A DNA stretch of 64,000 nucleotides from an uncultured Gammaproteobacteria bacterium (GCA_964583685.1 CAZOVJ010000001.1:393152-457151); one strand, 5' to 3'; shown: positions 1,125 through 23,269, counted from the first letter of the stretch. Notes: generated from the sequence alone by a model not told the origin. Numbers and translations are program-made.

Positions 1125-1125
1125 C

Positions 1126-2796
1126 TCAATTCTCCACTATTTCAAAAGCAATATCTCCTTTTGGAAAATAAATTTTCTTTATTATATTCGCCTCATTAGG
1201 AATTTCTTCATCCGCAGGAATTTCTTCATCCGTTCCAATAATTAAGCTGTTGGGATTTTCTGGCTGCACTTGGTCAAAATCAATCGGTCCAAAATAAAAT
1301 TTATCAAATTGCTGGACAGTGGAAAAACCAAATTTATCTTTGGCTGTTAAGTAATGGTCAGCCTGAAATTTAGCTGGCGGATATTTTAAATAAAATAAGA
1401 AAAGAATGTAGGGCTGATCATAGCGGTCAGTGACAATAACCTTGTCATATTTATAGGCATTGTCCTGAACAAAAGAAACAAGCTCCTTAAGGCCATATTG
1501 GGAAGAAAAAGGATATTCCTTGGCCACATGAACCCAATACAGGTGGAGATATCTGGCAAAGTTCCAGGTGATGAAAGCAATAAGCAAAAAGTAACAAGCG
1601 ATAAGTACCTCTTGCGGTTTAATATTTTTCTTCAACCACTTGATTATTCTCACTAGTCCATAGGCGCTGATGATGGTCAGGGGAATAACCATGTTCTGGG
1701 CCCGAAGGGCATGGGGAGATTGGAAGGTTAAGGCGGCTGCCATTGGCGCTACCACTAACCACCAAAGCACAGGTTTCCACCCCTTGGACCCTTTGACAAT
1801 GGCCAGCAAACCGACAAGAATAAAGACCAAATCAAAGAGATACAGCTGACCAGTTTCCGGCACTTTATTGCGCTGAATTGCGTCACCGGACAAAAATAAA
1901 AACTCTCCCCAAAAATGCTCTCCCCAATTCTCTGTCAAGGCCAAGCCATAATTAACAACCTTATTGTGCAAAACTCGGGCCAAGAGTCCCTGATAATTGG
2001 CATGTTCACCTCTTTGTTCATTAATCCGAGCCAGAGGACCGGGGTCAGCAAAAAGACCAACCCCAGTTGCCCGGGAAACAGCTCCCGGCTTTAACAAATC
2101 AGCAACCAAAGGCAAAAGAAGAACTCCGGCTATCAGTCCAGCCATTAACAATGGCTTGAGCTTGGCTTTGAGCTGGCGACAATAAATGATGATAAAGCCT
2201 AAGCCGAGCAAGGGAACAACAAGCCTAGCCGCATGGTAAGTATACAAAGATAAGGCAAAAGGCAAAAGGCAAAAGGCAAAATATTTGAAATTTTTTAAAG
2301 ATTTTAAAAACAACCAAATGCCACAAGTAATAAAGAAGGTGGCAGCATTAACTTCCCAACCTCCTCGAGAAAAATGGATGTGCCAAGGACTTATGGCCAG
2401 GAAAAAGCTCGAGATAATGGCCAGTTTCTCTCGCCCACCTGCCCTGGGTGCGCTAATTCCCAATTCTTTAACTAGAAAATAAACAACTAATATTGTCGTT
2501 ACTCCCAAAAGAGCTCCGGGAATTCTCACTGCCCATTCATTTAAGCCAAGAAATTTAACAAAAGGCAAAACCAGGTAAAAGAAAAGACCGGGTTTATAGT
2601 CATTAAAGGACTGAAAATGAAGCGGCCAGGAATTACCGTGCTCATCTCTTCCGGTTTGGAGTAATGAATAGACATTGTAACCAATGGCCGCTTCATCAGC
2701 ATTAAGGGCCGGATAACTGTTTAATCGATAAAAGCGCAAAATGAAAGCAAGCAAAATTATCAAAAACAAAACTATTTTCTTGTTCTTAATCAGCAT
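1126..2796 (-). CDS. GT-C glycosyltransferase, ArnT/PMT (PMT_2-like) family, paralog 1
   Basis: Loop motif NADEAAIGYNVYSLLQTGRDEHG...GLNEWAVRIPGAL. About 11 TM helices. Conserved C-terminal soluble region (KFYFGPIDF). Confidence 0.85.
   Translation of the reverse strand: MLIKNKKIVLFLIILLAFILRFYRLNSYPALNADEAAIGYNVYSLLQTGRDEHGNSWPLHFQSFNDYKPGLFFYLVLPFVKFLGLNEWAVRIPGALLGVTTILVVYFLVKELGISAPRAGGREKLAIISSFFLAISPWHIHFSRGGWEVNAATFFITCGIWLFLKSLKNFKYFAFCLLPFALSLYTYHAARLVVPLLGLGFIIIYCRQLKAKLKPLLMAGLIAGVLLLPLVADLLKPGAVSRATGVGLFADPGPLARINEQRGEHANYQGLLARVLHNKVVNYGLALTENWGEHFWGEFLFLSGDAIQRNKVPETGQLYLFDLVFILVGLLAIVKGSKGWKPVLWWLVVAPMAAALTFQSPHALRAQNMVIPLTIISAYGLVRIIKWLKKNIKPQEVLIACYFLLIAFITWNFARYLHLYWVHVAKEYPFSSQYGLKELVSFVQDNAYKYDKVIVTDRYDQPYILFLFYLKYPPAKFQADHYLTAKDKFGFSTVQQFDKFYFGPIDFDQVQPENPNSLIIGTDEEIPADEEIPNEANIIKKIYFPKGDIAFEIVEN
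1198..1233. repeat. Perfect-but-one 18-nt tandem duplication (aggaatttcttcatccgY x2) encoding DEEIPA/DEEIPN
   Basis: Read directly. Lies in the C-terminal region of GT-C paralog 1. Confidence 0.9.
2252..2281. repeat. Heptanucleotide tandem repeat (GGCAAAA)x4 (sense strand TTTTGCC) inside a CDS, in frame
   Basis: Read directly. Encodes FAFCLLPFA within a TM helix of 1126..2796. Confidence 0.9.
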
Positions 2797-2797
2797 A

Positions 2798-4471
2798 TTA
2801 TTTAACCTCTATTATCCTAAAAGCCTCCTCTCCGTTTAAATATTTTATTTCTCTAAGTAGGCGAAAAAGACTTTCATCACTGGAGTCCTCTATGGGAATT
2901 CTGATCGGATCAGCCACAAAAAGCGTTCCCTTCTCTCTCCGATTGATTGACCAGTCAATTGGACTAAACTCAATATTATCCAATTGCTCTACCTGGCCAA
3001 CGTCGCCAACCTCACTTTCCCTTAATCTTGCCTGTTTTTGGTATTTTAGGGGATCATATTTCTGGTAAAACAGAAAAAAGATATAGGGTTGGGCAAATGA
3101 TTGTTGAACTTTTATTTTTTGATAATTATTCTGGACTGGGCTGACTGTTTCTACTATCTGCTTATAGCCATATTCCCAGTATTTTGAATCGTGCTTAGGA
3201 AGATGAATAAAATAAGCATCTAAAAAGTAGGTAAAACTTGCCAGATAGAAAAGAATTACTATTCCGCAACCCGCAACCCGCAGCCGTCTCCTCCCTATCC
3301 AAACAACTAAACTTCGTAAACCGAAGGCAGCAACAATCATCAAGGGAATCAACAAGTTATAAGAGCGGACTGCCTGAATTTGGTCCCTGGATAAAGCAGC
3401 TGGCAGAGGAGCTAAAAAGAGCCAAAGCCAAACAAATTTAACTTCTCTTTTGGCCGCTAATCTGGTCAGACTGACAAAACCAAAAATCAAGGCAATTAAA
3501 TCAGCAAACAATAAAACTCCCTGATTGGGGGCAGTATGTCTTGGATTTTGCCAATCTCCCTCGAAAAAGAGAAACCTTGTTGAGAAATGATTGAACCAGC
3601 GACCCAAAACTCCCCGAGTAAAATTAAGAGCTTCTGAATGAAAAAGATAATATCTCAAACTGCCAACTTTTTCATTTCCCTGGTCAAGAAAGTCTTGAAG
3701 ATAAACCTCTGGCCGCGGGTAGGAAAAGACACTGAATACTGACAACCTACCGGTTTTACCCTGAAAAAGACTGAAAATTATAGGCAAGGAAATGAAAAAT
3801 CCAGTCAAAAATGCGGCTAAAAGAGTTCTCTTTTTAAAACCCAGTAATTGCCTACGATAAAGAACTACCAATAATAAAACCACAATGGCTGACGACAGCT
3901 TAGCTCCCTGATAAATAAGCAGGCTTGAGCTAAAAAATAATCCAGAGAAGATTAAATATCTCTGTTTTTTAAAAGACCTGAAGAAAAAATAGATGCCTGC
4001 CAAAGTAAATGTTAGACAAACATTCATTTCCCAGGCGCCGCGACTAAAAAGAATGTGCCAGGGATTAATTACCAGTAAAAGACTGGCAATAATCGCCAAT
4101 TTATTGTTCTTAAAAACCTCTTTGATCAGTAGATAAAAAAGCCAGACTGCTAAAATCCCAGACAGAGCACTGGGAAGCCGGACAGCAAGTTCGTTCAGTC
4201 CTAATAGAGCGACAAAGGGGGTAGTTAAATATATATAAAGGCCGGGCTTGAAATCGCCAAAAGATTTGAAAATTATGGGTAAGAAATTACCATACTCATC
4301 TTTGCCTGTCTTTAAAATTGAGTAGGCATTGTACCCCAAGGCCGCTTCGTCCTGGGTCAGGTGGGGTGGGATAACCCCAAGTTTCCAAAGACGCAAAAAA
4401 CCGGCTAAAAGAAGAATCATTATCAGCAAACTTTGTTTAATTTTCATAAATTTCAAAAGCCGGCTGGCCAT
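2798..4471 (-). CDS. GT-C glycosyltransferase, ArnT/PMT family, paralog 2
   Basis: TQDEAALGYNAYSILKTGKDEYG...GLNELAVRLPSAL. Start is ambiguous (overlaps the upstream gene by 35 nt). Confidence 0.85.
   Translation of the reverse strand: MASRLLKFMKIKQSLLIMILLLAGFLRLWKLGVIPPHLTQDEAALGYNAYSILKTGKDEYGNFLPIIFKSFGDFKPGLYIYLTTPFVALLGLNELAVRLPSALSGILAVWLFYLLIKEVFKNNKLAIIASLLLVINPWHILFSRGAWEMNVCLTFTLAGIYFFFRSFKKQRYLIFSGLFFSSSLLIYQGAKLSSAIVVLLLVVLYRRQLLGFKKRTLLAAFLTGFFISLPIIFSLFQGKTGRLSVFSVFSYPRPEVYLQDFLDQGNEKVGSLRYYLFHSEALNFTRGVLGRWFNHFSTRFLFFEGDWQNPRHTAPNQGVLLFADLIALIFGFVSLTRLAAKREVKFVWLWLFLAPLPAALSRDQIQAVRSYNLLIPLMIVAAFGLRSLVVWIGRRRLRVAGCGIVILFYLASFTYFLDAYFIHLPKHDSKYWEYGYKQIVETVSPVQNNYQKIKVQQSFAQPYIFFLFYQKYDPLKYQKQARLRESEVGDVGQVEQLDNIEFSPIDWSINRREKGTLFVADPIRIPIEDSSDESLFRLLREIKYLNGEEAFRIIEVK
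3265..3285. repeat. Heptanucleotide repeat (CCGCAAC)x2 plus a degenerate copy inside a CDS
   Basis: Read directly. Encodes RVAGCG in 2798..4471. Confidence 0.7.
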
Positions 4472-6152
4472 CTAGAAAATTAATTGTTTTTAATTTGTGC
4501 CAGCCTTGAGGATAATTTCCCGGACCGGTAATCAGAAGACAGTCTTTTCCTTGACAATCCGCCTTTTCGCCACTTTCTAAAATAAATTCTCCGTTTTTAC
4601 TTGTTGGTATCTGCCAGTCATTGACAAAATAGAACTTGTCAAATCTATCCAGCCAATACCAGTTTGATTGGTAAAAGCGGATAAGCTCGGGGTCATTTTG
4701 GAATCTTGCAGGCTCCCAAGGCCAGTAAAATAAGAAAAATTCATGGGGCTCACCATATTTTTTAGTAATAATAAACTTCTCATATTTCTGATAATTAGTC
4801 CTACTATAATCAACCACTTCCTTATACCCATACTGCCAGGACCAAGAATAGTTCTGCCGATATTCAAAGGCATAAGCCTGGCCATAATTTTCAATAGACA
4901 GGCCCAAAAGGAAAATATAGATTACGGCGAATAAATACTGAGGAACAATTCCTCCCGCAGGGCGGGCTTTCAACCATTGCCATACCAAGTTCAGACCAAG
5001 AGCAGAAAAAATCATTGGTATTGGTAGAAGTACAATACTCCTTAAAACATGAGGGGCCTCTCGGGTTAGACTTGAAGCGATTGGTCCAAGAAGAAACCAG
5101 CTAAGCAACAAACGAGCACTTTTTTCTTTATTCATCCTCTTAACAACAACAATCAACCCTAGCAAAAAAAATGGACAATTGATGGCGTATAAAAGTCCGT
5201 GTTCGGGCAAACTAAATTGATAATGGCTTCCGCCCTTCAAAAACAAGAATTCTGGAGAGAAGTGAGAAAAGTAGTTGGCAAGAAAAGTCTTTGTAAAATA
5301 GGTAACCTTGTTGTGGATTAAGAGGCTAGCTAGAGGCGTTAATTCTGTCTTGAGTCGCTCCTCATTTATCCGGTTAATCATTCCCTGGTCCAAAATCTCC
5401 ACCCATTGATAACGGGCTTGGCCGACTGGGTTGAAAAGCTGGTAAAACATAGGCAGGAAGAAAAATGCAAAAATCAAAATGCAAAATGCAAAAATCTTTT
5501 TATTTTTTTGATAAAACGACAAAACTTCTCTTTTATAAATAAAACTGAGTCCTAAAAGTAAGAGGGGAACAAAAATTCGGGCAGAATTATAAGTCCAGAC
5601 TGACAGGGAAAGCAAACCAATCCCCAATAATATTGGCCAAGATTTTTTCTCTAAACCCAACCATAAGAAATAAACACCGGAAATAATCAGGGCCAGGGAC
5701 AAGTTGGCTTCTACCGCAACCCTGGAAACAAACAAACCCCAGGGCTCCAAGGCAAGTAAAAGGCCAGCGATAATGGCCAGTTCCTTGCTTTTAAAAAGTT
5801 TTTTAACCAATAAATAGGTAAACAAAACACTAAAAGTTCCTGCCAAAATCGAAGGAAGCCTAACAGATAAAGCACTCAGGCCAAAAAAGAACTCTGAAAT
5901 TAAAGTCAAATAAATATAAAACGGCAGCTTATAATCACCATAAGCCCTGAAAATAATCGGCAACCTCTTTCCCCACTCGTCTTTGCCGGTCTTCAAAATA
6001 GAATAAGCATTATAACCATGACTGACCTCATCCCAATTAAGAGCCGGCGGAACAAGGGAAACATGACTAAATCTGAGGAAAAAGGCAAGTAAAATAACCA
6101 ATATTACCAGTAAATTTTTCCGAACTAAAAAAAGCCCTTTTAATAACATCAA
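4437..6152 (-). CDS. GT-C glycosyltransferase, ArnT/PMT family, paralog 3
   Basis: NWDEVSHGYNAYSILKTGKDEWG motif. Polytopic. Confidence 0.85.
   Translation of the reverse strand: MMLLKGLFLVRKNLLVILVILLAFFLRFSHVSLVPPALNWDEVSHGYNAYSILKTGKDEWGKRLPIIFRAYGDYKLPFYIYLTLISEFFFGLSALSVRLPSILAGTFSVLFTYLLVKKLFKSKELAIIAGLLLALEPWGLFVSRVAVEANLSLALIISGVYFLWLGLEKKSWPILLGIGLLSLSVWTYNSARIFVPLLLLGLSFIYKREVLSFYQKNKKIFAFCILIFAFFFLPMFYQLFNPVGQARYQWVEILDQGMINRINEERLKTELTPLASLLIHNKVTYFTKTFLANYFSHFSPEFLFLKGGSHYQFSLPEHGLLYAINCPFFLLGLIVVVKRMNKEKSARLLLSWFLLGPIASSLTREAPHVLRSIVLLPIPMIFSALGLNLVWQWLKARPAGGIVPQYLFAVIYIFLLGLSIENYGQAYAFEYRQNYSWSWQYGYKEVVDYSRTNYQKYEKFIITKKYGEPHEFFLFYWPWEPARFQNDPELIRFYQSNWYWLDRFDKFYFVNDWQIPTSKNGEFILESGEKADCQGKDCLLITGPGNYPQGWHKLKTINFLDGQPAFEIYEN
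5462..5496. repeat. Heptanucleotide tandem repeat (AAAATGC/AAAAATC)x5 inside a CDS, in frame
   Basis: Read directly. Sense strand GCATTTT/GATTTTT encodes IFAFCILIFAF in a TM helix of 4437..6152. Confidence 0.9.
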
Positions 6153-7801
6153 GACTCAACTAGCCAATAAGCATCTGTTCCATTTGGGTATCTAATAATC
6201 TTCTTTGTTTTAATTTCCTGAGGAAATTCTTCCGGGCTACCAATAACTAAAACATTTTGCTTAAGCAAATCTAATTTCCAATCAATTGTCTTAAAAGTAT
6301 ATTTATCCAAGTGATAAACATCTAATTGATCCAGCCAAATTAATCCTTTTTCTTCAAATTTCCAATTTCCCGACTGCTCCTGTATCTGAGCTGGCTCAAT
6401 CTTCTTATAAAAAGCAACAAATATCTGCGGCTCTGAGATTTTTTTAGTAAAAATAATCTCTTCGTATTCACCTTCAATCAGCCCCAGATATTCCATGATC
6501 TCCCTGGTGCCATAAATCATTGCTTTTGCTTGAGTTGCCGGTTGTTGAACAAAATAATCTTCAAGGAAAAAAGCAAAGGAAACAAGAAGAATTAAGCTCG
6601 CGCCAGGAATTATCAATTTTTGAAAGTATTTGGGAAGCTTTTCCTTAAGCTCAAAATATAAATAAATTCCGCCTATACCGGAAATTATTTGAAGGGCTGG
6701 AACCATAAAAAGAACCCGATTAGCCGCATAGCCCGGACCAATACTTAAAGCCGCTGGTATGGGTGAGATGAAAATCCAAAAGATGAGCCAATTAAGTTTT
6801 TTGATTTTACCAGTTAGCCAAGCCCAAACAAAGGCTAACAATAAAAACAACTCAAAGGTGTAAAGAACTCCCTTGCCCGGAAGCATGCCATAGGTTCCTT
6901 CTCCCGGTCCCTGGCTAAAGAAAAACTGGGGAGAAAAATATGAGAAATAATTCCTTAGAAAGGTTGAAAAGACAAAAGTCAGTTTATTATTAAAAATTCG
7001 GGCAGTAAAATCGGGCAAGCCTGCTAAGACGGCCGAGTATCTGGCGTCTCTTACATTCGAAGCCAGGCTAAAAATTCCGGCTGAGGATAGCCGTGAGCCT
7101 GCCCCAAAAAACAGGCTATAGCCTGCCAATAGCAAAAAAGGGCAAAAAACAATCAGGCCAGGAAGACATCTTTTGAAATCTAGTCTTGAACGATTAAACC
7201 AAATCAAACCTAGCAACAAAAGGGGCGTCAGTAAACGGGCTGAATGATAGGAAAAAAGATTTAGGCCAAAAATTAAGGCTGAAAGAACAAAAAGTTTGGC
7301 TCTTTTCAATTCTCTTGGAGAAAATGAACAAGCCTTAAAAAAGAAGAAAAGGGCCAAGGGCAAAAGAAAGGTTGTCAAGTTAGCCTCAAAGGCTCCTCTG
7401 GACATGGGAATATGCCAAGGAGAAATGGCTAACAGTAAAGCTGTTAGAATTGCCAAATTCTGCCTTTTAAAAACCTCCTTAACCAAAAAATAAACAACCA
7501 AGATTGATAAGCTGCCTAAAATAGCATTGGGTAGCCGGACAGCAAATTCATTCAGTCCAAAAACAGCGACAAAGGGAATATCTAGATAAGCATATAGAGG
7601 AAGTTTATAATCGCCAAAGGAACGCAGGGAAAGAGGGAAAGATCTTCCCCATTGGTCTTTTCCAGTCTTCAAAATCGAATAGGCATCGTAGCCAAAAGAG
7701 GCTTCATCAGGCGTGAAGCCGGTCGGATGGTTAGACAAAGCAATAACCCGCAATACAAAGGCAATTAAAATTATGCCTACCAGTAACCATTTTCGCATCA
7801 A
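6149..7801 (-). CDS. GT-C glycosyltransferase, ArnT/PMT family, paralog 4
   Basis: TPDEASFGYDAYSILKTGKDQWG...GLNEFAVRLPNAL. Confidence 0.85.
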   Translation of the reverse strand: MMRKWLLVGIILIAFVLRVIALSNHPTGFTPDEASFGYDAYSILKTGKDQWGRSFPLSLRSFGDYKLPLYAYLDIPFVAVFGLNEFAVRLPNAILGSLSILVVYFLVKEVFKRQNLAILTALLLAISPWHIPMSRGAFEANLTTFLLPLALFFFFKACSFSPRELKRAKLFVLSALIFGLNLFSYHSARLLTPLLLLGLIWFNRSRLDFKRCLPGLIVFCPFLLLAGYSLFFGAGSRLSSAGIFSLASNVRDARYSAVLAGLPDFTARIFNNKLTFVFSTFLRNYFSYFSPQFFFSQGPGEGTYGMLPGKGVLYTFELFLLLAFVWAWLTGKIKKLNWLIFWIFISPIPAALSIGPGYAANRVLFMVPALQIISGIGGIYLYFELKEKLPKYFQKLIIPGASLILLVSFAFFLEDYFVQQPATQAKAMIYGTREIMEYLGLIEGEYEEIIFTKKISEPQIFVAFYKKIEPAQIQEQSGNWKFEEKGLIWLDQLDVYHLDKYTFKTIDWKLDLLKQNVLVIGSPEEFPQEIKTKKIIRYPNGTDAYWLVES

Positions 7802-9500
7802 TACTTTATTATACAGCCATTTAATTTACTGTATACTCTTGCTAGTGCCAAAGCATAAACTCAAAAAATTGGCAGCTTTCCTGATTTTAAGCCTTTTAAT
7901 AATCAAGTTTGTTTTACTGCTCCAAGATTCGACGCCAACAACAATTGATGAGGCCCAAAGAGCCTATTTCTCCTTCTCAATCTTCAAAATTAAACCAGAA
8001 CTGACAGGAGATTTTTGGAGCTTTGGCAAAGAACAAGGCTACTTACTATTCTGGCTTCCAATTGTCTTTCTCAAACTCCTTTTTCTTTTTCTCCCTTTAT
8101 CTACCTTGAGCCTGCGAATTTCATCTCTAATCCTTTCGTTTCTCTCCTCGTTTTTCTTTGCTCTCAGCGCTGTTTGTTTGATAAAACACCAAAAGAAACA
8201 GGAACTTATTCTTTTTTCCACTAGCTTCCTCATTTTTTTCCTCTCCCCCTGGCAAAATTTTCTCGCCACCTTCTCTTTACCTGCCAATTTAACAATCTTT
8301 TTTGTCACTTTCTCTGTTTTTGCCTTTTTAAAAAGAGAGAAAAATCGTTTTTTCTCAGCCATCTATCCAATAAGCCTTGTCCTGGCAGGCTTCACTGGCT
8401 GGCCAGGCTTAATTTTTAGCTCTACCTTTTTGCTGTTTAGTAATCGCCGACTTCGGAAATTTAGTTTAATTGGTCTAATACTCTTGATCTGCCTGCTTTA
8501 TTTAAATAAAACATTTGTAAGACAATTCCTTGAAACTTCTTTTCTTAATCACCTGAGACCAGAAAGATTAGCCTTTGAAATAAACGAAAGGCAAAGAATT
8601 GATTTTTTGGCAGTAGAAAGAAAATTTATTCTGCCCTACGGCTTGAGAAAGTTAACCTACAACAAACCTGCTCTTGCCCTAAATAAAGTTGTTTCCCAGG
8701 CTGTTTCCTTCTTTGACTTCGAGCAGTTTGCTTCACCCTTGGATTCTTACCAGATTATCCGACTGAGCGGTCTTGTGCCAAAAGGCAATCCAATTTTGGG
8801 CTATATCTGGGAAATACCCCTTGTTATCTCTGGTCTCTATCTCTTGCTTCGAAACAAAAAAATGGCTAAAGAAAAAGTTTTGCTCTTATTATTTTGCTCT
8901 GGTTTTGCTTCTTTCCTGCTTTTCGAAAAAAAGTTAATGGTTCAGTCAGCCTTTATTCTACTTCCCCTTATTCTTATTTTAGAAACATTGGCCATCTTCA
9001 ACTTTGTCTTTAAAAAACCAATTCTTTCTCTTCTTTTTCCCTTGTTTTTATTGGGCATCATCAATTATCACTATCGTTTTTTTTACCAACCTCAAAATTA
9101 TCTAACTTCCCACCCCTTTCTTTTCCGGGAAATTGGCTACTGGCTCAAAGAAAACAAAACTGATAAAGACATTATCATTACCACTAGATTTGGCTCAACT
9201 CATCTGATGACCGCATTTTATCTGGAAATAAACCCCAATCTCTTTTGGCCCGAATATCTGAATAACAAAGAAGAGAAAACCTTTGACCATCTACATTTTA
9301 AAACTTTTCAAGTAAGTCAAGATAGACTGGAAGCAAAGACTGTTTATATCGGATTGATTGGGGAATTCGTTAAACCGGGAAAGTATTTGGAACAGAGAAA
9401 ACAACCGAACTTTTTCCATCTGATAAAAACCATTTCCGCAGAAGATGAAACGGTTTTCAATTATGGCAACTCAATATGGATAGGCTATTTCAACAAATAA
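7713..9500 (+). CDS. Polytopic membrane protein, probable GT-C-like; start uncertain
   Basis: 595-aa ORF rich in F/L TM segments with a C-terminal soluble part. The annotated start overlaps the divergent gene 6149..7801, so the true start is probably downstream (possibly non-ATG). Confidence 0.5.
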   Translation: MKPVGWLDKAITRNTKAIKIMPTSNHFRINTLLYSHLIYCILLLVPKHKLKKLAAFLILSLLIIKFVLLLQDSTPTTIDEAQRAYFSFSIFKIKPELTGDFWSFGKEQGYLLFWLPIVFLKLLFLFLPLSTLSLRISSLILSFLSSFFFALSAVCLIKHQKKQELILFSTSFLIFFLSPWQNFLATFSLPANLTIFFVTFSVFAFLKREKNRFFSAIYPISLVLAGFTGWPGLIFSSTFLLFSNRRLRKFSLIGLILLICLLYLNKTFVRQFLETSFLNHLRPERLAFEINERQRIDFLAVERKFILPYGLRKLTYNKPALALNKVVSQAVSFFDFEQFASPLDSYQIIRLSGLVPKGNPILGYIWEIPLVISGLYLLLRNKKMAKEKVLLLLFCSGFASFLLFEKKLMVQSAFILLPLILILETLAIFNFVFKKPILSLLFPLFLLGIINYHYRFFYQPQNYLTSHPFLFREIGYWLKENKTDKDIIITTRFGSTHLMTAFYLEINPNLFWPEYLNNKEEKTFDHLHFKTFQVSQDRLEAKTVYIGLIGEFVKPGKYLEQRKQPNFFHLIKTISAEDETVFNYGNSIWIGYFNK

Positions 9501-11110
9501 AGAAATTTTTATTCGGATTTGGAATCATTTTAATTCTGATTCTCGGGCTTCTGTTTCGCCTTATCTGGTTGTCCAAATCTCCGCCCTCATTGAACTGGGA
9601 TGAGGCTGCCTTGGGGTACAATGCCTACTCACTTCTTTCAACCAGTAAGGATGAATTTGGTAATAGACTACCAATTTCTCTTCGTTCCTTTGATGATTAC
9701 AAACCGGCTCTTTATGCTTATGCGACCATTCCCTTCATATCTCTTTTCGGCTTAAACGAATTCGCGGTTAGACTCCCTTCTGCCATCTCCGGAACCCTAA
9801 GCATATTTTTTATCTATCTTCTTTGCCAGACTCTTTTCAAGAAAAGAAGCATCTCTCTAATTGCCGCCCTTCTACTGGCAATTGAGCCCTGGTCTGTTCA
9901 CTTCTCCCGAGCCGCCTTTGAAGCGAACCTTGCCCTAGCCCTTTTTCTCGCCGGAATTTATCTTCTCATCAAATCTCAACATAAAAACATTTATCCGTTT
10001 TTAGGCTTTTTTCTACTTGTGCTTTCTGCTTATGCCTACCACTGCCAAAAACTACTTTTTATGCCAGTCATTTTGGCCTCCTTATTGGCCTACAAAAAAT
10101 CACTGATAAAAAACAAGAAAACAATTATCCTTGTCCTTTCCATGACTTTTCTTCTTAGCCTGCCCTTAATAAACCAGTTTTTGTTTCATCAAGAAACCCT
10201 GGGCCGGCTCGGCTCGACCTCAATAATAAAAATCTGGCAAGACAAATTCTCTCAAACTCCAAATCTCTTGATTGAAAACCCGCTTTTTTTTATCGCTAAA
10301 GACCTGGGTTCACACTATCTCTCATATTTCTCACCAGTCAATCTCTTTGTTCGGGGAACAGGAGAACCAACTCAGCACATTCCCAACTTTGGCATGTTTT
10401 ACAACTTCGAATTTTTCTTTTGGCTAATCGGCTGCTTTTTGTTAATAAAGAACTTCAAAAAGCAAAAATTTTTAAGTTTTCTTATCCTGATCGCTCCCTT
10501 GCCGGCCGCCATTACCTGGAACTGGTTTTATCCGGCCAGGGTTTTACTGCTTTTTGCTCTTTTCTCAATATTAATTGCCTGGGGTTTTGAATACGTCTTT
10601 GCCTGGCTCCTTTCCGCCCGACGGCCTTTTCATCTTCTTCTCTTCTTGGCGATACTTATTTTTGGTCTCATCAATGCTGCCAACCTGGCAACCTCGCTTC
10701 TTTTCTATCTTCCCTATCAAGAACGGGGTAATTGGCAATTTGGCATGGGCGAAATAACCCAAGAAATTTCAAAAAACGAAAACAATTACCAGCAAGTTAT
10801 ATTTGAAACCAAAACCGCCCAACCCCATATTTTTGTTCTTTTTTATTCAAAATACCCACCTCGTCAATACCACCAAGAAATAGAGACTCTATCTAGGAAA
10901 AAATCCCCTAGGAAATGTTTTGATTTTGGAAAATACAAATTCCGAGATGTCTACTGGCCGAAGGATAAAAAACTAGCCAATACCCTTTTGGTTGGCCCGG
11001 AATCGAGCCTTCCCTTGGAAAAAATAAAAACCCAGGAAAATGTGAATTTTATTCAAGATGTAAGAGATTCAGAGGGAATTTTACTAGCCCGATTGGTTGG
11101 TTTGAGGTAA
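9476..11110 (+). CDS. GT-C glycosyltransferase, ArnT/PMT family, paralog 5
   Basis: NWDEAALGYNAYSLLSTSKDEFG...GLNEFAVRLPSAI. Confidence 0.85.
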   Translation: MDRLFQQIKKFLFGFGIILILILGLLFRLIWLSKSPPSLNWDEAALGYNAYSLLSTSKDEFGNRLPISLRSFDDYKPALYAYATIPFISLFGLNEFAVRLPSAISGTLSIFFIYLLCQTLFKKRSISLIAALLLAIEPWSVHFSRAAFEANLALALFLAGIYLLIKSQHKNIYPFLGFFLLVLSAYAYHCQKLLFMPVILASLLAYKKSLIKNKKTIILVLSMTFLLSLPLINQFLFHQETLGRLGSTSIIKIWQDKFSQTPNLLIENPLFFIAKDLGSHYLSYFSPVNLFVRGTGEPTQHIPNFGMFYNFEFFFWLIGCFLLIKNFKKQKFLSFLILIAPLPAAITWNWFYPARVLLLFALFSILIAWGFEYVFAWLLSARRPFHLLLFLAILIFGLINAANLATSLLFYLPYQERGNWQFGMGEITQEISKNENNYQQVIFETKTAQPHIFVLFYSKYPPRQYHQEIETLSRKKSPRKCFDFGKYKFRDVYWPKDKKLANTLLVGPESSLPLEKIKTQENVNFIQDVRDSEGILLARLVGLR

Positions 11111-12346: not shown

Positions 12347-13389
12347 AGATAGGCGAAAACTGTTAATAAAAAGGAGGCATAGAAAATTCTCTTATGCTTG
12401 TAAACATATTTGTAGCCAGCCAATAAGCCAAGAGGAAAAAACACAGCCAGATATCTCCTCAGCTCTTCCAAAAAAGGAGCAGGAACTATTGAGAAAACGA
12501 AAACCATTGTCAAAATTGACCAAGTTTTAATAAAAACTTCGTCATTTTTAAGGAGAAAAGCACCTTTATTTTTCATTATTTTGAAAAATAAGAAAAAGGA
12601 GAAAAGGCTGTAACTAATTCCGGAAATCAAGATTCGCCATTGTTTCCAATCAATAGCCCTAAAAATATCTAAAAATATTTGTAGTGGGCCTAGGTTAAAA
12701 CTATAAATTGTATGATAAACATCCAATTGATAAAAAATTGCCAGCCAACTCTTGGTAAAAAAAGAAAAATTAAAGATAAAAAGCAAGCCGGGGAAAATAA
12801 GATAAATCAAAGAGCTTTTAATGGCTAATTTTTCCTTTTTCTCCTTCAGCAGAAAAGCCAAAAGGCCTAAAAATATACAAAGCGAAACAGGCCTGACTAT
12901 CGTAGCATAACCGGATAATAAACTAGCCAAAAAATACTTTCTTTTATGAAAGCATAAATAAATAAGCATGAAGAGAGCGATAATCAGGGTTTCGGTACTA
13001 ATCTTACTGGTCTGCTCAAAAATTATTGGCGGAAAAAGGGTTATCCATAAAGAAAAAATCGGGTTTTTAGTCAACCGATAAGTAACAAAAAAAATAATAA
13101 ATAAACATAAGGCGCTGATTATCAAACCTGAAAATGGCAAATTGTGAATCACTGGATTTAAAAGAAAAATTAAAATCGGCAGTCCGGGAAGAAGCCTATT
13201 ATCTGCATATGTAAGGGTATTAGGAAAACTCCCAGATTCTAAAGCATTAGTATAGACTAAGAAATTTTCCTGCTCCAAGGAATCAGTTCCTATATTTAAG
13301 CCATGGGGATTTTTAGCTAGAAAAAGCAGGCAGTGTAAAAGAAGAGCAATGGCAAAATAAAAAAAACAAATTGACAGGTTTTTTCTCAT
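12343..13389 (-). CDS. Polytopic membrane protein, unknown function
   Basis: 348-aa hydrophobic ORF. ATGA overlap with both neighbours in the operon. Confidence 0.55.
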   Translation of the reverse strand: MRKNLSICFFYFAIALLLHCLLFLAKNPHGLNIGTDSLEQENFLVYTNALESGSFPNTLTYADNRLLPGLPILIFLLNPVIHNLPFSGLIISALCLFIIFFVTYRLTKNPIFSLWITLFPPIIFEQTSKISTETLIIALFMLIYLCFHKRKYFLASLLSGYATIVRPVSLCIFLGLLAFLLKEKKEKLAIKSSLIYLIFPGLLFIFNFSFFTKSWLAIFYQLDVYHTIYSFNLGPLQIFLDIFRAIDWKQWRILISGISYSLFSFFLFFKIMKNKGAFLLKNDEVFIKTWSILTMVFVFSIVPAPFLEELRRYLAVFFPLGLLAGYKYVYKHKRIFYASFLLTVFAYL

Positions 13390-15128
13390 TCTTGAGATTT
13401 TCCTTTAAACAAATAAAAGGCTGGCTCGCCGGAGGGAAAGGAAATTGCTTTAACTATTTCTAAATCTTCGGGAACCCGCTCCGGCTCCATGATTAAATTC
13501 ACCTTAATCTCTTTTTCCGTTGCCAGATAGAGGGTTTGCTCATCCAAAACCTGTCCCCAAGAATAAAAACCATCACCTCCTGGCGAGCCAAAATAGAATT
13601 TGTCAATATGAGAAACTTCGCCAAACCCCTTCAAATAAACTTTATTGTTCAAAGGAAACTCTTTTTGCCATTTATCAGGAGGATACTGATACCAAGCGGC
13701 AAAAAATACCCATGGCGGTTCATTGGTGGTTGAAATTATCACCTTATCATAGTTTTTCTCGAGCGCTTTAATAGATTGAATCGATTCCTGAAAGCCAGCA
13801 TGCCACCATCGCTCAGAATACCAGGGATTGTGCACCCAAAAATTGTGTTGGTAAAAGATAAAACTGAGAACAAAAAAGGATAAATAAATACCCATAAACA
13901 AAAACTTAAAATTTTTCGGCAACCTTCTCAAGCTCTCTAAGAGTCCATAGGCAATCAAAAATATAAGCGGAGGAAGGATTAAAATAAGCCGAGTGGCGTG
14001 TTTACCCCCTTCCCGAGTAATAGCTGCCGGAACAACTCCCACCAAGAGCCAAAAAGCAATCAGGCTTTTAATTTTCTTGTTCCTAAATCGGCTGAAGAAT
14101 AAAATCAGACCCAAAATAAGAGGAATTACTTCAATCTTATAAAACTGGCCAATACCTTCAATTGAATGGCGCAAATTTAAATCTCCTTTGTTAAAGAGAA
14201 AATCTGTTGAAAAGCTCTCAAAGTAATTGCTGAGAATATTTGAGCCCCAAAAAGTAAACTTATTATGAAAAAGTCTATCAATAATCGTTGGCTGCAGGCC
14301 TTCTCCCAGTTCTCCTCGCATCCGGGCATCAATCAACCTGCTAAATCCCACTTCAGATTCGGTCGTTGGGTCTGTCAGGACACTGATATAGCCGAACCTG
14401 GCTGCCCCGCCGCTAAAAAGAGTACTGTAAACAATGGGCAAACCGACGATGAGCAGGGCCAGGAAACTGGTAAGCAGGTGCTTCTGAGAAAGCTTAAATA
14501 TTTCTTTCCTCCAAATCAGGAAAAGAAAGAGCAAAAGAAAAGGCGTAAAAAGCTTGGCTGTGCTGTAAACCCAGGGAGTCAGACCAAAACAAAGGGCTGA
14601 GAGCCACAGCCACTTACCGTTCTTTAAGGATTTGAAAAATAAATAAAGGCCGATGAGCAAGAAAAAAAGAAGCTGAGTAACCTCGAAAGCAGCCCGACTG
14701 TATTGAATGTGCCAGGGAGAAAATGTCAAGACTGCGGCTGAAATAAGGGCAAAACACTCATCTTTTGTTATTTCCTTGACCAACAGATACAATGCCCAAA
14801 TACCAAGTATGCCAAAAATGACTGCCGCTAATCTGACCCCCAACGGACTGATTCCAAAGAGGGCAACCGTGGGCACAGTAGAATAAAGATAGAGGGGAGT
14901 CCGCCATTCTGCCAGAGAATGAAAGTGCAAGGGCCAAGGATTTCCTGAATAGTCTTTTCCTGTTTTTAAAATAGAATAAGCTTGATAGCCAACATCCAGC
15001 TCGTCGCCAAACAAAGATACAGGAACTTGCTCGATCCTCCAAAGACGAAGAAAGACTGCAACTGCCAATATCAAAAATAAGATAACTAATTTTTTCTTTT
15101 TCTCATACATATTTTCTGACCAGACCAA
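13386..15128 (-). CDS. GT-C glycosyltransferase, ArnT/PMT family, paralog 6
   Basis: FGDELDVGYQAYSILKTGKDYSGNPWPLHF. C-terminal KFYFGSP motif. Confidence 0.8.
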   Translation of the reverse strand: MVWSENMYEKKKKLVILFLILAVAVFLRLWRIEQVPVSLFGDELDVGYQAYSILKTGKDYSGNPWPLHFHSLAEWRTPLYLYSTVPTVALFGISPLGVRLAAVIFGILGIWALYLLVKEITKDECFALISAAVLTFSPWHIQYSRAAFEVTQLLFFLLIGLYLFFKSLKNGKWLWLSALCFGLTPWVYSTAKLFTPFLLLFLFLIWRKEIFKLSQKHLLTSFLALLIVGLPIVYSTLFSGGAARFGYISVLTDPTTESEVGFSRLIDARMRGELGEGLQPTIIDRLFHNKFTFWGSNILSNYFESFSTDFLFNKGDLNLRHSIEGIGQFYKIEVIPLILGLILFFSRFRNKKIKSLIAFWLLVGVVPAAITREGGKHATRLILILPPLIFLIAYGLLESLRRLPKNFKFLFMGIYLSFFVLSFIFYQHNFWVHNPWYSERWWHAGFQESIQSIKALEKNYDKVIISTTNEPPWVFFAAWYQYPPDKWQKEFPLNNKVYLKGFGEVSHIDKFYFGSPGGDGFYSWGQVLDEQTLYLATEKEIKVNLIMEPERVPEDLEIVKAISFPSGEPAFYLFKGKSQE

Positions 15129-16809: not shown

Positions 16810-16810
16810 T

Positions 16811-19028: not shown

Positions 19029-19045
19029 AAACCAACTTTAGGCAA

Positions 19046-21478
19046 TCAAGTATAACTTTTTACCTTTCTCCTGCCAAGCAAATGGCTGGCCGGCACTAAA
19101 GTTAAGAGCAAAACCAGTGAAACCATTGATAACTTTAAACCATTAAAGAAAGATTCTGGTTGATAAACAAAACGTACCTCATGCTTGCCGCTGGGAATCT
19201 GAATTGCCCGGAAAGCAAAATCAGCCCGATAGATCTTTGTTTCTTTTCCGTCAATATAGGCCTTCCATCCCGGATAAAAGGCATCGGAAATAAAAAGCAA
19301 GCCATCTGAATCTGTTTGAACATTAATTACACTCTCCTGCTCTTCATATTTCCCGTAACTTATCTGACAAACCCCTTTTTCTCTCTTTTCTATCCCTGGC
19401 TCTTCTTCTAAAATCACTTTTTCCCTAAAGGGATATTTTGGATCAATAAGTTTTTTTAAGATCAATTGGTCATCCTTTATGACCTCCCAATCATAAACCA
19501 TAAAGGCCCGGGGAAGAACATTCTTACTCTCAAGAACAACCGTTGTTTTATCTTCAAAGGCCAAGCTAAATCTCTCAGTTCTAAAACGGCTGGGAATTTG
19601 GCCTTCTGGGTCCGGGTCATTCTTCTCATCCCTTTTTAGAGCAAGATAATACTTTGTATTCACCAGATCAAGCAAGTGTGATGTATCATTGTCAACCGTG
19701 CCGTATCTACCCACTGGATCTGTCCCCACTTTCTGACTATTTAATGCAGCCAAAAACCGAGAGATTCTCAATGGATGAATGGTTTCATAACCCTCCAGAG
19801 AATCTAATTTATAAGGTGTTCGCATATTTACAGGAACTACTCTATTCCCTGTTACCCTAAAGGGTTGTTCTTGGGAGATTAAAAAATCCAAGATTGGAGT
19901 TGTCGGAAAAATCAGTCTTCTTTCAGAAAAAGGCGTAAATTTCCATCCGAACCTAAATAATTCAAACAAAAGCAAAAACGACAAAAGTAAAAGGCCAAGC
20001 TTTTTTAATTTCTCCCATCTGGCCATAAACCAAAGAGCGACAGAAATTGTTATTAAAATAGCTGCTGGCAAAACCATATTCCTAAGAGCAACTTTATACT
20101 TGGCTATCCCACGAACAAAAAACAAACTTGGATCAGACTGGGTCATCAGGAATTTATAGACGGCAAAAGCTCCAAAGCCAGCAATTATCAAAGAAGGAAG
20201 TAATAAGGCAAAAATATATTTAAATTTGGCTCTTGCTTTCCAAATATAATCAAAGCCAAATCCCACAAGAAGAGCTACCCCAAAATTAAACAGTATTGTC
20301 GCTCTGTGAGCTGAGGCTGCTCGCATGCCAATAATATCCTCAGTCCATAAAAAGACTGGAAGGGGAGTGGGGAAAGATAAAATAAGTGAAAAAATTGATA
20401 ATATAAACAAAAACAGAACCGCTCTTTTTGTTTTTAAAAACTTTAGGCCCAAGGTTGCTAAAACAAAAACTACCACCCCAGCGTATCCAGTATTTGAGGT
20501 ATAGTCCTGGGGACCCCAGTAATTAGCGGTTGCATGATTGCCAAAATAGTCGGGGGCAAAAAATGTTATTATTTTTGACCAAGGTAAAAAGGCCCACTCA
20601 AAAGGATGTGGCTCAAAACTCCTTTGTGAAAGCCCCCATAATTCTACTGTTGGTAAAATCTGAAAAGCAGCCAGACCAAGAGCAAAAACCAAAAAGAAAG
20701 ATAAAGAGATTGTCCTTTTGATAAATTCTAAACTTCTGTCCTTGTAAAACTTTACTAACCAGAAAATAATCATGGCTATGGCCGTGTATAAACTAGTCTG
20801 GGGATAACCTGAAAGAAGTTGAAAAACCAAAGTCGATGCTAAAAGAACACCATCTTTTATTTTGCCTTTCTTCAAATATTTATCCTCAAAAAGAATGGCC
20901 AAGGGAATAAAACTTGATGCCAGTGTGTGTCCATTCCACTGGGAAAAAATAAGATTAAAACCGGAAAAAGCAAAAGCTACTCCTCCTAAAATTGATCCAA
21001 ATTTGGAGACCTTCCAATGTCTTAAGAGAAGATAGGAAAAAAAAGCAACTAGTATATGCTGGAAAGCTATTTGCAAATTCCAGGCTGTTAATTTATCAAA
21101 AAGAAAATAAACAAAATTTGTTGGCGAAAAGGGCGCCGCCTGTAGATTAGCAAAAAGTGGGGTACCAGTGAGAATATGAGGGTTCCATAAAGGCCACTGA
21201 CCAATTTTGATCAAATCAATACCCAGCATCTGTTCAGGATAGATTAATGAAACAACATCAGTAGTAATCGGATTTTTTACAGGCACTCCAACCGAGTATC
21301 CCCATTTATAATCAAGCCAGGGATAATAAACGCCAACAACAAAATCTCCGGGGATGGAAACTTGGCCAAGGAGAACCACTTTCCAAAAAAAGATTAAAAC
21401 CAGGCCAATAATCAAGACCAATGGCCAGAATCGTTTAAAGAAGGCCCAAAAACTCTTCCTCAAATCTTTCATACCCAT
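19046..21478 (-). CDS. YfhO-family (GT-C) membrane glycosyltransferase-like protein
   Basis: 810 aa. QWPLWNPHILTGTPLFA motif and C-terminal YPGWKAYIDGKE...FAFRAIQIPSGKHEV are typical of YfhO proteins. Confidence 0.65.
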   Translation of the reverse strand: MGMKDLRKSFWAFFKRFWPLVLIIGLVLIFFWKVVLLGQVSIPGDFVVGVYYPWLDYKWGYSVGVPVKNPITTDVVSLIYPEQMLGIDLIKIGQWPLWNPHILTGTPLFANLQAAPFSPTNFVYFLFDKLTAWNLQIAFQHILVAFFSYLLLRHWKVSKFGSILGGVAFAFSGFNLIFSQWNGHTLASSFIPLAILFEDKYLKKGKIKDGVLLASTLVFQLLSGYPQTSLYTAIAMIIFWLVKFYKDRSLEFIKRTISLSFFLVFALGLAAFQILPTVELWGLSQRSFEPHPFEWAFLPWSKIITFFAPDYFGNHATANYWGPQDYTSNTGYAGVVVFVLATLGLKFLKTKRAVLFLFILSIFSLILSFPTPLPVFLWTEDIIGMRAASAHRATILFNFGVALLVGFGFDYIWKARAKFKYIFALLLPSLIIAGFGAFAVYKFLMTQSDPSLFFVRGIAKYKVALRNMVLPAAILITISVALWFMARWEKLKKLGLLLLSFLLLFELFRFGWKFTPFSERRLIFPTTPILDFLISQEQPFRVTGNRVVPVNMRTPYKLDSLEGYETIHPLRISRFLAALNSQKVGTDPVGRYGTVDNDTSHLLDLVNTKYYLALKRDEKNDPDPEGQIPSRFRTERFSLAFEDKTTVVLESKNVLPRAFMVYDWEVIKDDQLILKKLIDPKYPFREKVILEEEPGIEKREKGVCQISYGKYEEQESVINVQTDSDGLLFISDAFYPGWKAYIDGKETKIYRADFAFRAIQIPSGKHEVRFVYQPESFFNGLKLSMVSLVLLLTLVPASHLLGRRKVKSYT

Positions 21479-22460
21479 ATTTTTGGCTCTCCTCTCTTGC
21501 GGCTAAAGAAAGCGTTCTCCATTTTTTTGAATCCCCTATTGTCTGCCTGGTAAAAAACAAAAGTTCTTTTGTTGTCCGCCAAAGATAGCCATTTTCCTTA
21601 TTCTCTATTATTTCTTGATGTCCACCTCCGGAAAAAACAATTGGCACTGCTCCGGTGGCCATGGCCTCGACAACACTTATACCAAAATGTTCAAGCTTCT
21701 CCGGTTCCATTTTCTCGTCAACTCCAAAACCAGATGCTGACCAAAAAAGTCTTGCTTTGCCATATAAATCCTTTAACTCATTAAAACTTGGGCTTTCAAT
21801 TATTTTTATCGGATAGCCCATGGAACTCTTTCTCAGCTTCTTAACAAAATCATTTACCCCAACTTCAACCCCACCAGCCAAAATCAGTTTCCACTCACTA
21901 AACCCAGAATCACAAAATCTTTTAAAGGCCTTTATTAAAATATCTTGCCTTTTTGCCTGCTTCAATTGAGAAAAGCGACCAATGGATACAATTAAATTTT
22001 CCTTTCTTTTGGATTTTATTTTCTCAACATCAACAGGCGGGTAAATAACAATGCTGTCAACACCATATTCTTTATCTATAAACTTTTTCGTGAAGTATGA
22101 ATTGCAGATAACTTCTCCTATCCTGAAAAATTTCATTCTATTAAGTAGGGTTTTCCCGTTCATAGAATGAAAGGGGACTTGGAAATGTAAAAAATTCTTG
22201 CGTGCACGAAGTATCGGAATACTCCCATCAGAAACCCAAAAACAAACATCGTATCCGTCTCCTCTGCCAATATCTTTGACAAAATTCACTTCTTTTAATT
22301 GAATACCGAATCTTTCTTCAATCTTTCTTTTGATATTTTCATCCTTCCATTCAACATCAACCCTATATCCCTTACCAACTAAGGCTTGGGCTACTGCCAT
22401 AGAGTAGCGCTCGCCCCCTCCCAAAGTATCCAGATATGGATTATAAATCGCTGCCCTCAT
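21435..22460 (-). CDS. GT4 (GT-B fold, family 1/4) glycosyltransferase
   Basis: EX7E motif EHFGISVVEAMATGAVPIV...GGGHQEII. Confidence 0.85.
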   Translation of the reverse strand: MRAAIYNPYLDTLGGGERYSMAVAQALVGKGYRVDVEWKDENIKRKIEERFGIQLKEVNFVKDIGRGDGYDVCFWVSDGSIPILRARKNFLHFQVPFHSMNGKTLLNRMKFFRIGEVICNSYFTKKFIDKEYGVDSIVIYPPVDVEKIKSKRKENLIVSIGRFSQLKQAKRQDILIKAFKRFCDSGFSEWKLILAGGVEVGVNDFVKKLRKSSMGYPIKIIESPSFNELKDLYGKARLFWSASGFGVDEKMEPEKLEHFGISVVEAMATGAVPIVFSGGGHQEIIENKENGYLWRTTKELLFFTRQTIGDSKKWRTLSLAAREESQKYGYERFEEEFLGLL

Positions 22461-23269
22461 TTTGCATTTTGATTTTTAAATTTTGCACTTTTTAATTGCA
22501 TTTCCCACAATTTTGCATAACTAACAAACCGACTAAACATCTGATAAATAATCTCCATAATACCAATCGGGCCGTCTAAAAAACCCAACTTGAGCACTGC
22601 TCGGTACCAAAATTCCCGAAAAACGGCGGATGAAAATCGGCAAATATTCATCTTCGGATGGCCAGCTTCAAACATCAAGCGGACTTCAATCTCTGACCAC
22701 CTATTAGTTTTTTCAACCATCTCCGTTAAGGAACGGTGAGTAAGATGAATCATTGGTTCTTTTAACTTGCCAACACTGCCTTTAATCTTCGGCTGTTCGT
22801 GAAGTTCTCCTCGCCAAGCCTCCAACTTATCCTTTTTAATCAACCTCAAAACATAATCCGGCCACCAACCACCGTGTCTCATTTCATGGCCTAGTAAAAT
22901 ATTACGCCTGGGAATAGCAAAGGCAGAGTGAACAGTGAACGGTGAACAGTGAACGGTGAACAGTGAAAGAATCTCTTTTTTAAGTTCAGGGGTTACACGC
23001 TCGTCGGCATCAATATAAAAGAGCCACTCTCCCTTGGCTTTTTCTGCTCCGAGATTCCTCCAATTTGAAAAACCCTTCTTTCTTGTTTTAATAATCTCAG
23101 CCCCATGCTTTTGGGCAATTTTCACTGTTTTATCAGTCGAGCCACTGTCAATAATAATAACCTCATCTGCCAATCCTTGAAGCGAGTTCAAACATCCACC
23201 AATCATCTTTTCTTCATTTTTGGCAACAATTATCGCACTCAAATGGACTTTTTTATTTTTCATTTCCAT
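22457..23269 (-). CDS. GT2 family glycosyltransferase carrying an in-frame heptamer-repeat insert; start trimmed to an internal Met
   Basis: LSAIIVAKNEEKMI...VIIIDSGSTDKT...YIDADE. The ORF-track start at 23323 would overlap the upstream gene by 64 nt. The C-terminal tail (EMQLKSAKFKNQNAK) is built from AAAATGC-type repeats. Confidence 0.75.
   Translation of the reverse strand: MEMKNKKVHLSAIIVAKNEEKMIGGCLNSLQGLADEVIIIDSGSTDKTVKIAQKHGAEIIKTRKKGFSNWRNLGAEKAKGEWLFYIDADERVTPELKKEILSLFTVHCSPFTVHSAFAIPRRNILLGHEMRHGGWWPDYVLRLIKKDKLEAWRGELHEQPKIKGSVGKLKEPMIHLTHRSLTEMVEKTNRWSEIEVRLMFEAGHPKMNICRFSSAVFREFWYRAVLKLGFLDGPIGIMEIIYQMFSRFVSYAKLWEMQLKSAKFKNQNAK
22460..22518. repeat. Degenerate heptamer tract (TTTTGCA/TTTTGAT/TTTTAAA) spanning a gene junction
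   Basis: Forms the C-terminal tail and stop of 22457..23269. Its first base is part of the start codon of 21435..22460. Confidence 0.75.
22926..22967. repeat. Heptanucleotide tandem repeat (RGTGAAC)x6 (sense strand GTTCACY / TTCACYG phase), in frame in a GT2 gene
   Basis: agtgaacagtgaacggtgaacagtgaacggtgaacagtgaaa encodes LFTVHCSPFTVHSAF. Confidence 0.95.

Follow-up and report, generated by a model that had tools for sequence, protein, structure and literature searches.

Three glycosyltransferase (GT) genes in a stretch of DNA recorded as coming from an uncultured Gammaproteobacteria bacterium contain tandem runs of 7-nt units, and the locus raises the question of whether these heptamer tracts arrived recently, through an active repeat process, or were inherited together with the genes in which they lie. 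The stretch comprises 64,000 nt (GCA_964583685.1 CAZOVJ010000001.1:393152-457151) and is referred to here as the window. Tracts 1 and 2 lie in ORF1 and ORF3, two open reading frames (ORFs) of the GT39/PMT_2 type, and tract 3 forms the end of a GT2 gene (Table 1). An initial annotation of the sequence had read the tracts as one TTTTGCN family, with those in ORF1 and ORF3 inserted independently into different helices of paralogous genes. Comparison with paralogs and orthologs gave the opposite answer: the three tracts of the window are inherited copies of old arrays, not fresh insertions.

Tract sequences and their counterparts in related genes

Significance was assessed per 64 kb from 100 third-order Markov (Markov-3) simulations, and copy number by Tandem Repeats Finder (TRF) together with scans for exact runs. 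Tract 1 is (GGCAAAA)4 preceded by two A's on the given strand, in agreement with the initial annotation, and amounts to 4.3 perfect copies with 23/23 matches at lag 7, that is, between each base and the base seven positions further on. It is the sole stretch of its kind in the 64 kb, and none like it arose in the 100 simulations. Tract 2, whose five units had likewise been reported exactly, reads AAAATGC AAAAATC AAAATGC AAAATGC AAAAATC on the given strand (sense GATTTTT GCATTTT GCATTTT GATTTTT GCATTTT); TRF describes it as 5 copies at 82% matches, and 22/29 positions match at lag 7. About 0.09 stretches of this kind are expected per 64 kb, and one was seen in 1/100 simulations (p ~0.01). Its translation, IFAFCILIFAFF, falls in a segment predicted to be transmembrane (TM)-like by Kyte-Doolittle hydropathy (ORF3 residues 219-237).

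Tract 3 had been described as a degenerate tract that builds the end of the GT2 gene and runs into the next gene. The arrangement holds: the tract supplies the last ~15 codons (ending SAKFKNQNAK) and the stop, and its terminal ATGA serves at once as GT2 stop and as ATG of the following gene. Its orientation is, however, opposite to that of tracts 1 and 2, with AAAATGC and not TTTTGCN on the sense strand, and taken alone it is weak (~5 copies at 74% matches by TRF; the full 61 nt not significant; 23/33 matches and p ~0.07 per 64 kb for the core at 22458-22497). We count it as a heptamer array only because orthologous tails elsewhere are 7-periodic too. As tandem short units above compositional expectation, marginally so for tract 3 taken alone, tracts 1-3 fit the definition of simple sequence repeats (SSRs). 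A further two-unit copy, previously placed at 7339-7352, was found 10 nt away at 7349-7362; it is made of a different unit, and 289 windows are equally good.

Nor is the "TTTTGCN family" a special entity. The likeness of TTTTGCC to TTTTGCA is not significant: among the 66 pairs formed by 12 unrelated hydrophobic-coding, TM-type array units, seven also differ by at most one mismatch in their best rotation. T-rich units do suit membrane helices, as had been proposed, each phase encoding hydrophobic residues; the more specific statement that TTTTGCN yields F, C, L, P or A in every phase holds for N = C.

In an alignment of the seven paralogs of the window, tracts 1 and 2 stand in ungapped columns and occupy adjacent, non-homologous helices, the latter as annotated, while the other paralogs of the window have no such array at either position. 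Alignment of tract 1 with 39 ORF1 orthologs needs no gap, nor does that of tract 2 with ORF3-family loci and with 59/60 of the closest ORF3 orthologs. At the tract 1 site, a relative with 62% protein identity (L006) reads TTTGCCT TTTGCAT TTTGCCT TTTGTTT. At the tract 2 site, two relatives with 57-59% identity (L131 and L132) bear an orthologous array of five NNTTTTG units, of which units 4 and 5 are identical to those of the window in both; a third (L133) is more degenerate there. In L127 (62% identity) the GT2 tail ends in the same 21 nt as in the window, AATCAAAATGCAAAATGA. The same arrays occur in relatives whose proteins are 57-62% identical and are therefore older than those divergences; the tracts are repeat arrays of long standing and more than low-complexity helices. 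Conservation at homologous positions, which the initial annotation had set against insertion, is largely found among the relatives but not among the window paralogs, which have no arrays there.

These comparisons bear directly on the model of recent independent insertion into paralog helices by an active or mobile repeat process. Its attraction lay in the placement of two tracts in non-homologous, if adjacent, helices that are without a tract in the remaining paralogs of the window, and it could also draw on the heptamer excess of the lineage (see below), which means that a process exists, and on arrays in loops and tails, which do add length. Set against it are the gap-free alignment of tracts 1 and 2 with paralogs and ~100 orthologs, the orthologous arrays in relatives, and a resemblance between TTTTGCC and TTTTGCA that is within chance for hydrophobic-coding heptamers (7/66 pairs). 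We consider it highly unlikely. The lineage-specific indels that the model called for are not seen, and what stands of the proposed active or recent process is that a heptamer-specific process belongs to this lineage, whereas the tracts themselves are not recent.

Period-7 repeats across the lineage

In spite of its label, the source is an ultra-small, uncultured bacterium of the Patescibacteria, of Microgenomates/Woesebacteria-like type. The closest database relatives of ORF1 are at most 71% identical and are unnamed or Patescibacteria proteins, and the related genome loci come mostly from Woesebacteria, Blackburnbacteria and "Patescibacteria group" metagenome-assembled genomes (MAGs). Some MAG records named "uncultured Gammaproteobacteria bacterium" also contain syntenic Woesebacteria-type GT39 clusters (L008, L011, L012, L023, L025, L034, L037-L040, L043); such records are probably mislabelled Patescibacteria.

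The window holds 18 perfect heptamer arrays of at least two copies, against 6.6±2.5 expected under the Markov-3 model. In 43 related loci (767 kb), 17 heptamer arrays of at least three perfect copies were found against 0 expected, the corresponding counts being 0 for period 6 and 1 for period 8. A lag spectrum over lags 4-15 was then computed for 114 de-duplicated Microgenomates/Woesebacteria loci and the window, 1.52 Mb in all. Lag 7 gave 60 self-match runs of at least 12 and 26 of at least 20; lag 14, which corresponds to double heptamers, gave 24 and 6, and each remaining lag gave 1-3 and 0. Nearly all arrays of at least three copies (34/36) lie in frame inside ORFs, with 3-5.7 copies. The lineage is enriched in tandem repeats of 7 nt, and very specifically so.

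The sites of these repeats were examined by an alignment-based scan of the ORF1 and ORF3 families, with lags 5, 8 and 10 as controls. In the ORF3 family, a strong lag-7 signal occurs in 33% of orthologs at residue ~223 (the tract 2 site) and in 15% at residue ~172, in the helix homologous to that of tract 1. In the ORF1 family it occurs in 19% of orthologs at residue ~402, where the window has its array at 1575-1605, and in 10% at residue ~175 (tract 1). The control lags gave zero signal at all of these hot spots, and more than half of the orthologs are without periodicity at each of them. Overall, the recurrent sites in GT39 and GT2 proteins are the adjacent helices at ~175 and ~223, a third helix at ~400, loops and C-terminal tails.

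Chance or composition, by which an AT-rich genome, T-rich hydrophobic codons and low complexity would mimic periodicity, is hardly credible as the source of this pattern. It is in keeping with the full length of tract 3 and the copy at 7349-7362, neither of them significant alone, and hydrophobic coding does narrow the heptamer sequence space. It conflicts with the absence of tract 1 from the simulations, with the value obtained for tract 2, with an enrichment confined to lag 7 and its double, at least 20-fold over all other lags in 1.5 Mb, and with the silent control lags at the hot spots. An assembly artefact was rejected in view of the many independent assemblies with the same pattern. A protein-level heptad or protein-driven low complexity was likewise rejected, the period being 7 nt and not 3 or 21, with identity that reaches synonymous positions.

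The units themselves differ between lineages. Four in-register heptamers of the same extent occupy the tract 2 site in 17/41 orthologs, each with lineage-specific units (among them ATTATTC, CTTACTA, CCTATTG, CCTAGTG and CATTTTG at the ORF3 helix), and CCTAGTG differs from CCTATTG by a single base altered in adjacent copies. The units at the tract 1 site (TTTGCCT, TTTGCTC and TTTGTAC) have TTTG in common in register, and their last three bases vary together. Units within an array agree at 5.51/7 positions, compared with 3.60 between species at the same index and 3.50 at different indices. Throughout, arrays at the helix sites keep a constant size of ~4 units across species with no indel. The GT2 loop, by contrast, varies among orthologs between 3 and at least 17 aa and contains peptides of heptamer type, NWKLEIGN and NHQSPTTN among them, and the GT2 tail that follows YAKLWEMQ ranges from 2 to ~30 aa, its DNA being 7-periodic in L127, L128 and L129. 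Array length varies where the protein tolerates change, in loops and tails.

The constant extent and copy number per site (~4 units) across deep divergence could also be expected of a functional periodic element, in which recognition of tandem heptamers in DNA or mRNA by a protein or RNA-binding factor (for example a cold-shock protein-like or HutP-like single-strand binder), or an mRNA membrane-targeting signal, would maintain the tracts, and selection on that function would preserve their position and copy number. The in-register conservation of TTTG at the ORF1 helix and of TTTTG in the tract 2 subclade would fit such an element, and heptamer binding by cold-shock proteins has been discussed (PMC4679880). 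The units differ widely, however, from T-rich and A-rich to GTTCACN, and therefore offer no common recognition sequence; periodicity is lost in more than half of the orthologs at each hot spot, amino-acid constraint and codon bias account for what is conserved within the subclade, and no partner factor was identified. We judge this explanation decidedly improbable.

Length behaviour and a proposed origin

All of the tracts lie inside ORFs for surface-type GT39 or GT2 enzymes, and since 7 is not a multiple of 3 a change by one unit would shift the frame. Variation in length was therefore sought among near-identical sequences. An exact-protein look-up for ORF1 returned two other contigs, both 100% identical to the window, and contig L130 is identical to the window over 21137-24963; independent assemblies of this population show no difference over four arrays. 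No 7-nt indel was found in 11 near-identical locus pairs, in which few arrays lie. A metagenome scan for ORF3 relatives returned no contig of the same species, the best match being 58% identical. In a virtual slippage test, 93 perfect arrays of at least 2.4 copies from the 114 loci were altered by ±1 or ±2 units: in 0/93 did the change give a longer ORF, so that no OFF-phase allele was found.

These results have to be weighed against the idea that the tracts are contingency loci, at which heptamer gain and loss would frameshift GT paralogs ON and OFF and so vary the surface glycans of an episymbiont. The setting is suggestive, with tracts in surface-glycosylation genes that have many tandem paralogs, and the perfection of tract 1 suggests recent slippage. 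Repeated OFF/ON cycles would moreover homogenise units at constant length, as is seen across lineages. One Logan contig from SRR3095939 (L001) stops inside tract 2, as may happen at a polymorphic site. Precedents exist in the K1 capsule O-acetyltransferase NeuO (PMC13001214) and in heptanucleotide SSRs of Haemophilus (PMC2651432). Yet no allele among the 93 arrays is OFF-phase, no 7-nt indel separates the near-identical pairs, the two independent assemblies agree over four arrays, and copy number is low (3-6) and fixed at ~4 at helix sites across species. The tracts are placed mid-gene or 3' and not near the 5' end, and a like array lies in TrmD, an essential housekeeping gene. Neither ON/OFF alleles nor a restriction to contingency-type genes was found, and phase variation seems to us improbable here. 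L001 is 100% identical to window positions 1-5493, and its end within tract 2 could reflect either a polymorphic or a low-coverage site in the SRR3095939 sample.

We propose instead that the tracts are probably long-lived coding heptanucleotide microsatellites made by slippage and locked in length, by-products of mutation that selection has filtered and not switches. The arrays would originate by replication slippage biased to 7-nt registers, as has been put forward for prokaryotes generally, and would persist only in permissive protein segments, where the unit encodes a tolerable peptide in each of its three phases. For hydrophobic helices these would be T-rich units and for loops and tails A-rich or polar ones, and selection on reading frame and helix length would purge alleles with ±1 or ±2 units. 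The change of unit in all copies across deeper branches may represent occasional homogenisation, for which we envisage three routes: compensated gain and loss, in-frame steps of ±3 units, or transient misalignment followed by realignment, in which a neighbouring unit is copied at unchanged length. The last would follow from established models of templated mutagenesis.

Several points weigh against this proposal. Slippage is inferred and was never observed directly, the near-identical pairs offering no 7-nt indel in its support, and homogenisation without change of length is likewise inferred and not demonstrated. A slippage account leaves the preference for 7 nt unexplained. The neighbour-joining tree of ORF3-family proteins is star-like and does not discriminate between repeated de novo origin at a permissive site and one ancient array whose units turned over. 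The closest subclade keeps units 4 and 5 by position (L131 and L132), and within it the array decays slowly under amino-acid constraint, without activity. Finally, some units appear at loci that have nothing to do with one another (GTTCACN at three in the window, GAAATTG in several genomes), and local slippage by itself does not predict that a genome should favour one heptamer in this way.

A further possibility is a length-neutral repeat-conversion process specific to Microgenomates, either templated 7-nt misalignment tied to replication or repair, or rare reversible frameshifting unseen in consensus assemblies. We hold this to be unlikely. If true, repeat conversion would keep coding arrays pure over the long term and rewrite GT helices, loops and tails in one step, and would constitute a built-in evolvability module for the episymbiont cell surface.

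Known heptamer repeats and the wider gene neighbourhood

The nearest kin of the slippage-made arrays proposed here is the general heptanucleotide SSR excess of prokaryotes; what is new is that the arrays are lineage-wide, conserved in position, coding and locked in length. A 2007 survey of heptanucleotide SSRs was reportedly that of Mrázek, Guo and Shah in PNAS. Few genomes of this phylum were then available, and the survey presumably could not include it. In the survey as summarised in PMC4679880 and PMC4692102, 7-nt units are, as here, the dominant long SSR class with an excess specific to period 7, and its coding repeats mostly have unit lengths divisible by three, whereas here nearly all arrays are in ORFs and read in three phases. 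The present arrays differ further in that they have 3-6 copies and occupy the same protein positions, membrane helices included, in a deeply diverged uncultured phylum. In most prokaryotic genomes no class of long SSR is more abundant than heptanucleotides, for which polymerase slippage is the explanation offered, and the 2007 survey related a slippage origin to the span of DNA that the polymerase holds (PMC4679880, PMC4692102).

The likeness to the short tandemly repeated repetitive (STRR) sequences of Calothrix, Nostoc and Anabaena and to the GGGNATC repeats of Xanthomonas and Nostoc lies in genome-specific favoured units at many loci (PMC4692102), and rests here on GTTCACN in three unrelated genes and on the GAAATTG of relatives. 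Those repeats are mainly intergenic, often much longer (up to 26 units), G-rich and capable of forming G-quadruplexes (PMC4692102), in contrast to the coding, short and AT-rich arrays described here. Dispersal of the STRR type is not supported for TTTTGCN, for which the 64 kb contain two sense arrays and one inverted, decayed array, each separately inherited. The TAACTGA repeats of Beggiatoaceae, cyanobacteria and Bacteroidetes are also direct heptamers in 2-6 copies; they consist of one unit, placed for the most part directly before start codons, and a function in the control of translation has been proposed for them, whereas here there are many units and a mostly intragenic location (PMC4679880). 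The few TAACTGA arrays within ORFs are in "reverse" orientation and would encode the 7-aa periodic peptide LSVISYQ (PMC4679880).

Among phase-variable loci, NeuO (PMC13001214) and the Haemophilus SSRs (PMC2651432) resemble the present case in that a 7-nt repeat lies in or near a surface-glycan gene and one-unit change is a frameshift; the Haemophilus repeats vary in copy number between strains and show OFF alleles, unlike the fixed low copy number, the lack of strain polymorphism and the 0/93 OFF found here. No report of heptamer repeats in Patescibacteria, Woesebacteria or Microgenomates was found in the literature searched. The CAAACAA tract of Neisseria pglE is a phase-variable heptanucleotide SSR, and known phase-variable SSRs are usually longer and 5'-proximal.

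Intragenic microsatellites whose unit is not a triplet are usually taken as switches or as damage; those described here are read through, tolerated in helices and fixed in length. The conclusion at the level of the window is modest, namely that the tracts are inherited gene features. If the phenomenon is genome-wide, it would offer a clean natural system in which to ask why bacterial replication favours 7-nt slippage, would show mutation bias shaping poorly constrained protein segments in reduced genomes, and would call for caution in annotation, where comparative data should come before any such tract is labelled phase-variable or inserted.

The region from 1 to 27 kb, together with much of the remaining window, forms a glycosylation island. 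A Pfam search gave a PMT_2/PMT (GT39, ArnT-like) match above the gathering threshold for PF13231 or PF02366 in six of the seven genes of 1126-15128; the seventh (7713-9500), a relative only 23% identical, is divergent and has no match in Pfam. Additional GT39 genes lie at 31562-33238, 38851-40563 and 46809-48413, and 21435-25099 is occupied by GT2 and GT4 genes. Positions 1-48413 are exceptionally GT-dense, with at least nine GT39/PMT_2-like genes and many GT2/GT4 genes in less than 50 kb, and also hold several YfhO/PTPS-related membrane proteins, on a source contig of only 484,806 nt. The features discussed are collected in Table 1.

Table 1 Heptamer arrays and host genes in the window, with recurrent GAAATTG arrays of related loci
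Feature	Position	Strand	Product or context
ORF1, GT39/PMT_2 glycosyltransferase, 556 aa	1126-2796	(-)	Host of tract 1
ATTGCTT-type imperfect array	1575-1605	(-)	ORF1, IACYFLLIAF, residue ~400; third family-wide hot spot
Tract 1, perfect heptamer array, sense (TTTTGCC)x4.3	2252-2281	(-)	YFAFCLLPFAL, ORF1 residues 172-182
(CCGCAAC)x2.7	3264-3282	(-)	ORF2, RVAGCGIV, residue ~396; region of third hot spot
ORF3, GT39/PMT_2 glycosyltransferase, 570 aa from ATG (P0242)	4437-6149	(-)	Host of tract 2
Tract 2, imperfect 5-unit array	5462-5496	(-)	IFAFCILIFAFF, ORF3 residues 219-230
AAGGGCC/AAGGGCA	7349-7362	(-)	Chance-level, outside the feature
GT4/GT1 gene	21435-22460	(-)	3' of GT2 gene; ATG (22460-22458) from last heptamer unit of tract 3
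GT2 glycosyltransferase, 268 aa in database protein P0121	22457-23263	(-)	Host of tract 3
Tract 3, decayed heptamer array, sense NNNNAAA / CAAAATG units	22458-22518	(-)	GT2 C-terminal tail, …LKSAKFKNQNAK and stop
(GTTCACY)x5.9	22927-22967	(-)	Length-variable loop of tract 3's GT2 gene, FTVHCSPFTVHS
(TTCAACT)x4.7	23990-24022	(-)	Neighbouring GT2 gene, SNFQLSTSNFQL
(GTTCACC)x3.4	58698-58721	(+)	TrmD interdomain linker, TVHPSPFTV
(GAAATTG)n, related loci	L003 14770-14802; L009 10289-10323; L011 13049-13068; L015 8666-8699; L023 12996-13021; L024 8671-8700; L085 497-521		Also in protein P0140

The array in the TrmD linker means that the heptamer process also reaches genes outside glycosylation. 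Three proteins of the window that are unrelated to one another have arrays of GTTCACN, in each case on the sense strand: in the GT2 loop, in TrmD and, at 48359-48387, at the N-terminus of a GT39 gene (LFTVNCSLF). The array in the GT2 loop has a perfect 14-nt period at 22928-22967 (GTGAACA GTGAACG x2.9); three such blocks add up to 42 nt or 14 aa, and this suggests growth in frame by two-unit steps. In the same GT2 gene, the last heptamer unit of tract 3, CAAAATGA, gives the overlapping stop and start at the gene junction of the window; L127 has a spacer of ~100 nt (2283-2382) between the GT2 stop and the next gene that is missing from the window (22457-22460).

A 7-aa insertion in a loop of ORF1 relative to its paralogs, GISAPRA (window 2440-2466, residues ~111-119), was considered as a product of three heptamers and rejected, its DNA having no lag-7 signal. 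It is the same loop in which relatives bear heptamer arrays. (GAAATTG)n, encoding KLEIGNWKLEI, is repeated across many Microgenomates genomes, where it is found in a loop of GT39 (residues ~115-131), a 378-416-aa protein and the GT2 loop. (CAATCAC)n, encoding SPITNHQS, is likewise recurrent, in L007, L044, L041 and several GT2 orthologs.

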